Made by a program: the position numbers and the translations under genes. The notes below the pieces were generated by a model. It was not told the origin of the DNA, did no database searches, and saw only the letters and a program-made list of their open reading frames with translations. Below, in pieces: positions 52,367-56,997 of a stretch of 64,000 nucleotides of DNA. This DNA is from Promethearchaeota archaeon (GTDB lineage Archaea; Asgardarchaeota; Lokiarchaeia; Sigyniarchaeales; SOKP01), in contig JAEOTR010000079.1 of NCBI GenBank assembly GCA_016839705.1, forward strand, positions 32,224 through 96,223. Reading direction: 5' to 3'. Each line of letters begins with the position of its first letter. Position 1 is the stretch's first letter.

Positions 52367-52762
52367 TTAAACTATTTTTTGAATTACTAAATCTAAATAG
52401 GATTGAATCTGTTTTTCAACAATATCATAGTGTGTAAATTTTCCTTTTTTCCAACCTTTAATTAATCCTGCTTTTTCAAGGATTTTAAGATGATGAGATA
52501 TTGATGGTTGTGACTCATTCAATAATGCTTCTAATTCACAAACACATCGATCTTTTTCTTTTAAGACGTTCATTATTATTAAGCGCTTTTTGTTTCCTAA
52601 GGCACTTAGAAATTTGGTTAAATCACTAAAATTTGAACTTTCAATCAAATGATCTCCTAATTCACGCAATTGTTTGAAATGTACAGTTGGGTTATCAATA
52701 TCCTCACATTTAATCAATTTTTCTAGAATTTCTTTTTTATGATCGGGATCCATTAGTAACAC
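52367..52762 (-). CDS. arsR: ArsR-family repressor (CVC arsenite motif)
   Basis: ALGNKKRL, RCVCEL, SQPSISHHLKIL; divergent from acr3. Confidence 0.88.
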   Translation of the reverse strand: MLLMDPDHKKEILEKLIKCEDIDNPTVHFKQLRELGDHLIESSNFSDLTKFLSALGNKKRLIIMNVLKEKDRCVCELEALLNESQPSISHHLKILEKAGLIKGWKKGKFTHYDIVEKQIQSYLDLVIQKIV

Positions 52763-52831: not shown

Positions 52832-52855
52832 AAATTTTTATTTGGATAAAAATTT
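52832..52855. promoter_or_regulatory. Candidate ArsR operator
   Basis: Perfect 10-bp inverted repeat AAATTTTTAT-TTGG-ATAAAAATTT in the arsR/acr3 intergenic region; low complexity limits confidence. Confidence 0.35.
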
Positions 52856-52911: not shown

Positions 52912-53937
52912 ATGACAGAAGAAGATGGCCGGGGAATTAGTTTTTTTGAACGTTACCTTACAATTTGGGTGGCAGCTTGTATTGGAATAGGAATTCTCCT
53001 TTCTCAAATTATCCCGAGTATTAGTGTAGCGATTAACACCTTACAGATTGGGGGAATTTCTTTACCTATTGGGATTTGTCTATTCCTAATGATGTATCCT
53101 GCAATGCTGAATCTTCAACTTGCTGAACTTAAAAAGTTAGGAAAAAACCCAAAACCCATAATTTTAACTATTATGTCTAATTGGCTTATTGCTCCTTTTG
53201 TTGGATTACTAGTGGCACGGATATTTTTACAAGGGTATGAACAGTTAATTGTAGCAGTCATCCTTCTCTCGAGTTCACCATGTACTGCTATGGTTTTGGT
53301 GTGGGGTTGGATGGCTAAAGGCAATCAAGAACAGAATGTTATGAATACAAGCCTAAACACAATAACAATTATATTCGGTTATGCTCCTCTTGTTACACTC
53401 TTAACTGGTATTCAAAACATTCCAATTGACTGGGTTCTTTTATTAATCTCGACATTCGTATTCATAGGACTTCCGCTATTAGGAGGAATTATCAGTAAAA
53501 GATTGTTAATTCGATCAAGAGGAGAAGAGTGGTTCAACGATACCTATCGTCCAATCATAGGAAAGATATCAATTATTGCCTTGTTAACAACGTTGATTAT
53601 ACTTTTTTCAATGAATGGTAATGTTTTGATACAAAATCCAGATTTATTATTAATAATTACAATTCCACTCTTACTCGGTTTTGTGATTGTAGTTGGATAT
53701 AATATACTGATTACAAAACTCACTAAATTGAAATACCGAGAAGCTATTATTACAGTAATTATTGGATCATCAAGCCATTTTGAAATTGCGATTGCTACTG
53801 CTATTGCTATGTATGGAATTGGTTCAGTAGCAGCTCTAGGGACTACCATGGGCCTTTTTTGGGAAGTTCCAATTATGCTATCCATAGTATATCTTGGTCG
53901 GTTCCTTAAAAAACGAAGTTTCTGGAAAACAGAATAA
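52912..53937 (+). CDS. acr3: ACR3-family arsenite efflux transporter
   Basis: FFERYLTIWV, MMYP, NWLIAPF, PCTAMVLVW, FEIAIA, EVPIM. Confidence 0.93.
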   Translation: MTEEDGRGISFFERYLTIWVAACIGIGILLSQIIPSISVAINTLQIGGISLPIGICLFLMMYPAMLNLQLAELKKLGKNPKPIILTIMSNWLIAPFVGLLVARIFLQGYEQLIVAVILLSSSPCTAMVLVWGWMAKGNQEQNVMNTSLNTITIIFGYAPLVTLLTGIQNIPIDWVLLLISTFVFIGLPLLGGIISKRLLIRSRGEEWFNDTYRPIIGKISIIALLTTLIILFSMNGNVLIQNPDLLLIITIPLLLGFVIVVGYNILITKLTKLKYREAIITVIIGSSSHFEIAIATAIAMYGIGSVAALGTTMGLFWEVPIMLSIVYLGRFLKKRSFWKTE

Positions 53938-54251: not shown

Positions 54252-54533
54252 ATGAGTAAGGAAGAAAAGAATGGAAAACTGAAAGTAGACATTTATGTTC
54301 CACTTGATGCATGCGCATGCGAGTGGGACAAGTTTATGAATCGGGTATTTGTTGAACTTACTCCATACATAAAACATATTGATTATGATACCAAGAACTT
54401 AAATTCAGAAGAAGCAAGAAATCTCGACATTCGAAATAAATGTATTGTGGTTGATGGTGAGAAAAGGTTTTCTTCTTCGTTTGTACTTAAAAGAGAACTA
54501 CCAAAACTTCTTAAAGCTAAAGGACTTATATAA
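54252..54533 (+). CDS. Small thioredoxin-like protein with CxC motif
   Basis: VDIYVPLDACAC...CIVVDGE pattern. Confidence 0.65.
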   Translation: MSKEEKNGKLKVDIYVPLDACACEWDKFMNRVFVELTPYIKHIDYDTKNLNSEEARNLDIRNKCIVVDGEKRFSSSFVLKRELPKLLKAKGLI

Positions 54534-54566
54534 ACTTTAGCAGATTTATTATTTTATTCATTTGGG

Positions 54567-55046
54567 GTGATTATCAAAATTAAAAAAATTAAACTAACAA
54601 TTTTTGCTCCTGATCCTGAAAAAAGATTATCTCGGGGGCTTGAAAATATGGTTAATATAAAAGACAATGGAACCATCGTTGATGCGCTTAGTACCCTAGA
54701 TAAACAGGCCTACATTAATCCAGAAGATTCTATCTTTCCAATATACAAGGGATCTATAAACAGTTATCTACAGTTGATTTGGGATGCCGAAGAAAATACA
54801 ATTTACGAGGATTGTGCTGTGAACGCGTATGGTCCAGAAAGAGAATTCATGAATTTACAAGAAGATATCACAACTAATTTATATCCCAATAGTAATATAA
54901 CCATCGTTGTACATGCCGATTGATGAGCCGATGTCATGAAAGAAAGATTAGATTTTGGGACTTTTAAAAAAACATTGATGCAGGTTTATGGAAAAAATCA
55001 TGAAGCATTTGCTCATTATTTCTCAATTAAAAGAAAAAATAAATAA
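54567..55046 (+). CDS. Putative selenoprotein with tandem UGA-UGA (Sec-Sec); 118 aa if terminated at 54923, 159 aa if recoded
   Basis: ...VVHAD-TGA-TGA-ADVMKERLDFGTFKKTLMQVYGKNHEAFAHYFSIKRKNK-TAA; SECIS-like hairpin 5 nt after the TAA; N-terminal part resembles a beta-grasp pattern. Confidence 0.7.
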
Positions 55047-55051
55047 TTTGA

Positions 55052-55087
55052 ATGAAGTCTTTCAATAAATGCTCGTGAAAGATTGAC
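55052..55087 (+). promoter_or_regulatory. Eukaryote-like SECIS element
   Basis: ATGA-AGTCTTTCA-ATAAATGCTCG-TGAAAGATT-GA: AUGA/GA core, 9-bp helix, AAA 11 nt after AUGA. Confidence 0.7.
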
Positions 55088-55088
55088 A

Positions 55089-55110
55089 ATAGGATTGCTT
55101 CCTATATTTT
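55089..55110 (+). terminator. Hairpin plus T-tract after the SECIS (candidate terminator/3' end)
   Basis: ATAGGA-TTGCT-TCCTAT followed by ATTTT. Confidence 0.35.
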
Positions 55111-56798: not shown

Positions 56799-56924
56799 AT
56801 GCTAGAAAAAGATTTACTCTCAATAGTGCGAGATTTTGCTCAGGAAAATCCTGAAAAATATGATATTCATGGATTTTCTCACTCTGAGAGAGTAAATTTT
56901 TTGAAGCCTTTCAAAAAATATTAG
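56799..56924 (+). pseudogene. Truncated N-terminal paralog of the HD-domain gene at 58404
   Basis: MLEKDLLSIVRDFAQENPEKYDIHGFSHSERV versus MLENNFILKVRKFALDNSEKDDIHGFLHVERV; similarity stops abruptly at about 56895. Confidence 0.75.
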
Positions 56925-56954
56925 TTTAAGGCTGACAATAGGATTGTCTCCTAT
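56901..56954 (+). repeat. Diverged second copy of the SECIS-plus-hairpin element
   Basis: 42/54 identical, ungapped, to 55052-55105. Confidence 0.75.
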
Positions 56955-56997
56955 TAATAATGTTTAAATAAAAAGCTAATTCCTTAAGAATTTAATA

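Follow-up and report, generated by a model that had tools for sequence, protein, structure and literature searches.

A gene family spread across the Lokiarchaeia carries two adjacent in-frame TGA codons and is very probably a real, conserved family of selenoproteins with neighboring selenocysteine (Sec, U) residues. No description of the family or its context was found in a literature search that most subscription journals fell outside. One member lies in the 64,000 nt stretch of a Promethearchaeota archaeon genome analyzed here (the window; positions are counted from its first nucleotide), and comparison with its homologues makes it highly likely that both UGAs are decoded as Sec under the control of a 3' lokiSECIS element. 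The function we infer is that of a scavenger or chaperone of As(III), and the explanation as a whole, a Sec-Sec protein with a beta-grasp domain, the U-U pair on a loop, a helical tail and this metalloid-handling role, is given a probability of about 0.5. The features of the gene are as follows.

54579-55046, plus strand: predicted gene of a subfamily A Sec-Sec selenoprotein, its product about 155 aa long if translation begins, as is probable, at ATT; predicted beta-grasp, U-U loop and three-helix tail
54564-54571, plus strand: Shine-Dalgarno-like motif GGGGTGAT, including the GTG that ORF finders pick as start
54921-54926, plus strand: TGA-TGA, predicted to encode Sec119-Sec120, where Urm1, SAMP and CysO have their Gly-Gly tail
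54927-55043, plus strand: read-through tail of 39 codons, predicted as three helices when the whole protein is modeled, with an in-frame ATG at 54936 and TAA at 55044-55046
54813-54815, plus strand: Cys83 (numbering from 54567), candidate third ligand, its closeness to U-U presumed from ubiquitin topology
55052-55086, plus strand: lokiSECIS with AUGA, a 9 bp stem, an 11 nt A-rich loop ending in G, and GA; the first UGA is 131 nt away
55089-55105, plus strand: second conserved 6 bp hairpin directly 3' of the SECIS, 5 of 6 pairs with compensatory changes and 92% paired

By direct reading, the frame from 54567 meets TGA-TGA at 54921-54926 and continues for 39 sense codons to TAA (55044-55046); these codons and the hairpin that follows are just as an earlier sequence-only reading of this DNA had described them. 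That reading also held the open tail to be unlikely by chance, which taken alone is only modestly unusual (p ~0.03 from local composition), the strong argument coming from comparison with homologues. It had predicted a product of 159 aa from the ORF that begins at 54567. The GTG at that point lies within the Shine-Dalgarno-like motif, and the ATG of some homologues aligns with ATT 54579, which makes 155 aa the probable length instead. In most homologues, a Shine-Dalgarno-like motif is found 4–8 nt ahead of this conserved start column, which is ATT in 56 of 84 copies and elsewhere includes the near-cognate codons GTC, GTT, TTT, TTA and ATA, and some copies have an in-frame stop a short distance ahead of it. 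The probable ATT start, the beta-grasp fold and the C-U-U and U-G-U-U variants described below are additions to the sequence-only reading. RNA-library contigs over the gene (54761-54972, with TGA-TGA intact, and 54552-54741) are short and of low depth, and are no gauge of expression.

The names of close homologues place this genome in the Lokiarchaeia (Promethearchaeia). The gene was found in 135 of 161 Lokiarchaeia genomes with a single-protein query and in 138 with a profile, and every full-length match listed in these whole-genome searches has two TGA codons. Both codons are TGA, never TAA or TAG, in all 111 distinct copies, at identities down to 21%; the copy parser demanded UU, and the only hits it left out were a frameshifted copy and another that had been mis-parsed and is in fact C-U-U. 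By comparison, TAA ends 68% and TGA 15% of the long ORFs of this genome, and a TGA-TGA double stop follows four of 2082. Over 30 codons, dN/dS in subfamily A is 0.092 before U-U and 0.118 after it, and in subfamily B 0.152 before and 0.118 after, compared with 0.9–1.6 in shifted frames, and above 1.3 in the shifted frames of the tail; the copies are related and not independent, but their synonymous sites are close to saturation. A dN/dS below 1 past the UGAs was what the sequence-only reading had proposed to look for, and the outcome it named as fatal, homologues ending in TAA or TAG with nothing conserved downstream, is refuted by the 111 TGA-TGA copies and a tail dN/dS of about 0.12. Nearly all database homologues stop after the same residue, at 118 aa, with HAD or a like triplet as their last residues. 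In two entries (P0041, P0111) TGA was translated as Trp, and these extend to 152–159 aa. Translation table 4, as used for these two, is ruled out here because TGA terminates 15% of long ORFs. No conserved hairpin was found directly after UGA-UGA among the homologue copies compared. Outside the class, a search of 239 Asgard genomes with the family profile gave only two weak N-terminal matches. Two anomalous copies (L066 and L051), one frameshifted and one with an extra in-frame TGA in the tail and a GACG SECIS core, are possibly decaying.

Three subfamilies were recognized: A, with the motif HAD-U-U-AD, to which the gene studied belongs; B, with xxG-C-U-U; and C, with SSx-U-G-U-U and three predicted Sec residues. 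In a midpoint-rooted tree, B occurs across all Lokiarchaeia families sampled, while A (support 96/86) and C (100/100) each arise once, within the family of this genome; on this topology C-U-U is the ancestral variant. The U-G-U-U subfamily was seen at five loci, often in tandem with a C-U-U copy, and C-U-U copies are present in two single-contig genomes (loci L120 and L121). Cys83 is found in 41 of 44 subfamily A copies, six of 39 family-level C-U-U copies, none of five U-G-U-U copies and no distant C-U-U copy, a correlation that depends on the single origin of subfamily A. Each subfamily thereby keeps three S/Se residues: U-U plus Cys83, C-U-U, or U-G-U-U.

A profile search of 1.8 billion proteins returned uninterrupted archaeal homologues of 120–157 aa, three of them named Bathyarchaeia. 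In these, U119 aligns with a Cys and the E-x-L-x-Y-x-x-F-x-K tail is likewise present (hhalign probability 98.4), which indicates that domain and tail form one polypeptide. The 157-aa copy is nested among Loki sequences and has C-V-S in place of C-U-U; a C-V-S homologue without Sec (L113:1274-2216) lies directly upstream of a NifU-domain gene. The sign that the sequence-only reading had proposed to look for, Cys at the UGA positions of homologues, is thus seen at U119 but not at U120, which has no Cys counterpart in any homologue found. This pairing of U119 alone, and the placement of U-U where related folds have their C-terminal GG, would suit a beta-grasp protein ending in a single Sec, with the first UGA decoded and the second terminating. 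Such a reading leaves the purifying selection on the in-frame tail unexplained, as well as the constant TGA at the second codon, and in C-U-U copies the column in question is occupied by the Cys rather than the first UGA; it is considered highly improbable.

The hairpin after the gene comprises ATGA (55052-55055), a stem of 55056-55064 paired with 55076-55084, a loop of 55065-55075 and GA (55085-55086). It has every feature of the published lokiSECIS definition (PMC4989117), and its folding energy is unremarkable (z -0.8). The strict SECIS pattern follows 81 of 112 copies of the gene, compared with 10 of 4010 background windows, and a covariance model retrieves near misses within the family of this genome; in distant families, a SECIS is detectable after only eight of 22 copies. 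All eight stem pairs examined show compensatory changes and 99% of cells are paired, in an alignment that was chosen by the same pattern and is biased in that direction. The proposal of a 3'-UTR SECIS is thus upheld by pattern, covariation and enrichment. Within the genome, the gene studied, PrxL, HdrA-VhuD and tandem Sec-SelD genes are each followed by the perfect 8 bp/11 nt AUGA-GA form, which refutes the idea that the hairpin is a dispersed repeat unlinked to UGA-containing genes, and the covariance model adds a second VhuD SECIS and a decayed copy at 56902. In three tandem pairs, with some 20 nt between the two genes, both members share a single SECIS located downstream. Two SelD genes that contain Sec also lie in tandem ahead of one type-I-like SECIS (C5:4909-7060). 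The co-oriented genes upstream of the Sec-Sec gene and its counterparts (acr3, Cys/His, CxC, ferredoxin and methyltransferase) end in TGA in one of 125 cases, compared with 15% in the genome at large, a pattern to be expected of a SECIS whose reach extends across an entire polycistronic mRNA.

The second hairpin (55089-55105) has similar counterparts after the SelD, PrxL and VhuD SECIS sites (contigs C5, C13, C15 and C81), and is not mentioned in the available part of the lokiSECIS text; it could be part of the SECIS element, or a terminator or stability signal. A decayed SECIS plus second hairpin, scoring 54 bits and without AUGA, is present at 56896-56962, after a truncated 48-aa fragment of an HD gene and before a CDF-like gene. 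Four relatives carry a C-U-U copy at the matching site, and the decayed element is probably the remnant of a lost paralogue.

A quite different explanation is that UGA-UGA is a true double stop, the tail a separate 36-aa peptide re-initiated at ATG 54936, and the SECIS incidental. A start-like codon is indeed found two to three codons past UGA-UGA in a single column (ATG in 43 of 44 subfamily A copies, GTG in 30 of 40 family-level C-U-U copies, ATG or TTG in five of five U-G-U-U copies), although Val is encoded as GTG only 12.5% of the time genome-wide, and gene callers annotate such peptides (P0192, P0196). Distant copies, however, mostly lack a start codon there, and between UGA-UGA and ATG the encoded amino acids are kept while the codons change synonymously. 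The absence of TAA and TAG in a genome where TAA is the usual stop, the uninterrupted homologues (among them the nested C-V-S copy) and a SECIS with no other UGA gene to serve all argue against termination, which is accordingly rated as very unlikely. Decoding as Sec-Sec is retained, to which a mixed state, with read-through when selenium is available and re-initiation when it is not, would be an unlikely add-on.

The machinery for Sec insertion, whose presence the sequence-only reading had made a point to confirm, is represented in this genome: two Sec-containing SelD genes and SepSecS score above cut-off, EFSec-like (235 bits) and PSTK-like (146 bits) proteins fall under theirs, and a tRNA-Sec(UCA) with a 9/4 fold and 7 bp D stem is obtained once a 33 nt intron is removed. 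The latter is encoded at the ends of contigs C16 and C87 (L089, L090), where a 127 nt overlap joins the EFSec- and SepSecS-bearing contigs; its intron lies in the D arm, while that of the published Loki tRNA-Sec is in the T arm. The 'tRNA-SeC' that ARAGORN flagged on contig C18 lies within a coding region and is spurious. In 151 of 161 Lokiarchaeia genomes SepSecS scores above its cut-off, and in one (L141, G017:C10) it lies about 2 kb from the Sec-Sec gene. In SECIS anatomy and position, machinery and the avoidance of UGA stops upstream, the gene resembles the lokiSECIS selenoprotein genes PrxL, VhuU, HdrA-VhuD and SelD (PMC4989117, PMC11227280), and tandem copies can share one SECIS as in HdrA-VhuD. 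It differs in its two adjacent Sec codons and in a sequence and fold unrelated to theirs.

That the protein belongs to no known archaeal selenoprotein family, as had been claimed earlier, is supported by the lack of any Pfam or NCBIfam match to, and by Sec motifs different from, SelD, HdrA, VhuD/FrhD, VhuU/FrhA, Fdh, PrxL, AhpF-N and DsbA-like proteins. Adjacent Sec codons do occur in some animal SELENOP genes. A 2024 survey of Asgard archaea reported seven selenoprotein families using a search restricted to known families, and its supplements contain none of the motifs of the family studied (PMC11227280); a 2026 inventory of 119 prokaryotic selenoprotein families contains no U-U motif (PMC13188914).

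The structure was predicted with AlphaFold2 from a 58-row alignment with Sec entered as Cys (pLDDT 90). The model shows a beta-grasp domain over residues 5–115, U-U on a loop after the last strand, and then three helices; the tail modeled alone gave a single, uninformative helix. The fold matches are Urm1, SAMP1/2, CysO, MoaD and transcobalamin beta domains, with middling Z scores of up to 7.4 and none significant by Foldseek. For Urm1, SAMP, MoaD and CysO, the similarity amounts to Z 5.5–7.1 and rmsd 3–3.6 Å over 80–93 residues, and transcobalamin beta domains score as well. Alignments to CysO, SAMP and MoaD stop at residues 117–121, which places U-U at the GG position. From ubiquitin topology, residue 83 would begin the strand that adjoins the last one at its end, and would thereby lie close to U-U. 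Sequence searches of Pfam, NCBIfam and PDB gave no family match, and going by the model, which has an extra helical insert and tail, the protein is not a member of the Urm1/SAMP/MoaD/ThiS group, since it has neither GG nor a free C-terminus. At seven loci, a gene for a PAN-like proteasome ATPase is found just downstream of the Sec-Sec gene.

The matches to Urm1, SAMP1/2, CysO and MoaD, which align up to the U-U position, could also indicate a sulfur or selenium carrier of the Urm1/MoaD kind, in which the U-U (or C-U-U) loop bears a persulfide or selenide for cofactor synthesis or selenium storage, or becomes accessible once the tail has been removed. An aldehyde:ferredoxin oxidoreductase (AOR) gene is adjacent in three of 20 distant genomes, a NifU-domain gene lies beside one Sec-less homologue, and SepSecS is 2 kb away in one genome. 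The conserved, folded tail and the missing Gly-Gly and free C-terminus speak against a carrier, as do Z scores of 6–7 and the absence of any E1/ThiF-like gene among the recurring neighbors, and this role appears quite improbable.

The Sec-Sec gene is preceded in the window by an arsenic-resistance locus, the features of which are given below.

52367-52762, minus strand: ArsR/SmtB repressor with a CVCE motif, divergent from acr3
52832-52855, no strand assigned: AT-rich inverted repeat with 10 bp arms between arsR and acr3, candidate operator
52912-53937, plus strand: Acr3 arsenite efflux permease (TIGR00832, 277 bits against a cut-off of 282.8), the only acr3 match in the genome
54010-54228, plus strand: protein of 72 aa, rich in Cys and His; some relatives have it fused to the CxC protein
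54252-54533, plus strand: 93-aa thioredoxin-like protein with a C-A-C motif, probable operon partner (Thioredoxin_3 clusters at 0.86–0.89, a lead only)

Within about 6 kb of the gene, in hand-picked loci from related and hence non-independent genomes, the family of this genome has acr3 in 39 of 53 genomes and the CxC protein in 38, with a methyltransferase::HgcA-like gene and HgcB-like ferredoxin in 15, arsC in five and arsM in three. Other Lokiarchaeia families, where several contigs are short, have acr3 nearby in two of 20 genomes and AOR in three. The link to arsenic made in the sequence-only reading thus holds for the family of this genome but hardly elsewhere, and appears strong yet lineage-limited. 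No arsA was seen in the neighborhood maps examined, and the Cys-only homologues sit in unrelated gene contexts. In the 15 genomes with HgcA-like and HgcB-like genes (loci L006, L041, L043, L045, L053 and L063 among them), the fusion protein of about 550 aa and the ferredoxin are encoded between acr3 and the Sec-Sec gene, a position taken by ArsM at three other loci. A link between hgcAB and arsenic has been proposed (10.1101/2022.10.17.512643).

As(III) is three-coordinate in ArsA, ArsD (Cys12, Cys13 and Cys18) and ArsR (PMC12415280), and this, together with the three S/Se residues kept in each subfamily, favors a metalloid scavenger or chaperone over a redox protein or S/Se carrier. On a loop at the reactive tail position of a Urm1/SAMP-like beta-grasp, with a small helical tail where a free C-terminus would otherwise be, the two selenols would be joined by a third ligand: in this protein Cys83, in C-U-U proteins the Cys, and in U-G-U-U proteins the additional Sec. 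In our estimate there is nearly an even chance that these residues bind As(III), or some other soft metal or metalloid, in three-coordinate fashion. The role of the protein would be that of a scavenger or chaperone with high affinity, analogous to ArsD, handing the metalloid to Acr3, or in relatives to ArsM or the HgcAB-like methyltransferases, and the CxC thioredoxin-like neighbor would reset it. Like ArsD, it has a vicinal pair, a third S/Se residue and an ars-operon context (PMC12415280); it is not homologous (no Pfam or NCBIfam match), has another fold and Sec for Cys, and lacks an arsA in the neighborhoods examined. Vicinal Cys/Sec residues in C-U motifs have likewise been proposed as ligands in As/Hg loci for SaoC, SaoB, MbdU, SaoL and HgcA, none of which is listed with U-U, C-U-U or U-G-U-U (PMC13188914).

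The vicinal selenols might instead cycle as a diselenide or selenylsulfide in a general redox protein that the CxC thioredoxin-like protein re-reduces, recruited to ars loci in one family and possibly replacing ArsC. C-U-U is kept in lineages without ars neighbors, most selenoproteins are oxidoreductases (PMC13188914) and arsC is near in only five of 53 genomes. The protein, however, has no thioredoxin fold or CxxU motif, and a third S/Se residue kept by three different routes exceeds the need of two-electron redox chemistry, so that this alternative is judged rather unlikely. Returning to the metalloid site, a bolder and tentative proposal, more doubtful than probable, is that a near-universal Lokiarchaeia family decodes two to three Sec within four positions from one eukaryote-like 3' SECIS, begins at an AUU start and builds a tri-chalcogen arsenite site on a ubiquitin-like fold, and that the selenium supply may decide whether a full-length form is made or one split by termination and re-initiation.

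If the interpretation is correct, a gene whose present annotation is that of a hypothetical protein truncated at 118 aa would be among the most widespread selenoproteins of the Lokiarchaeia (138 of 161 genomes), in addition to the seven Asgard families, and would provide a natural test of back-to-back UGA decoding by a eukaryote-like 3' SECIS without SBP2. It would also put Sec where a ubiquitin-like fold has its GG and tie selenium to the handling of arsenic, and possibly mercury, in sediment archaea.
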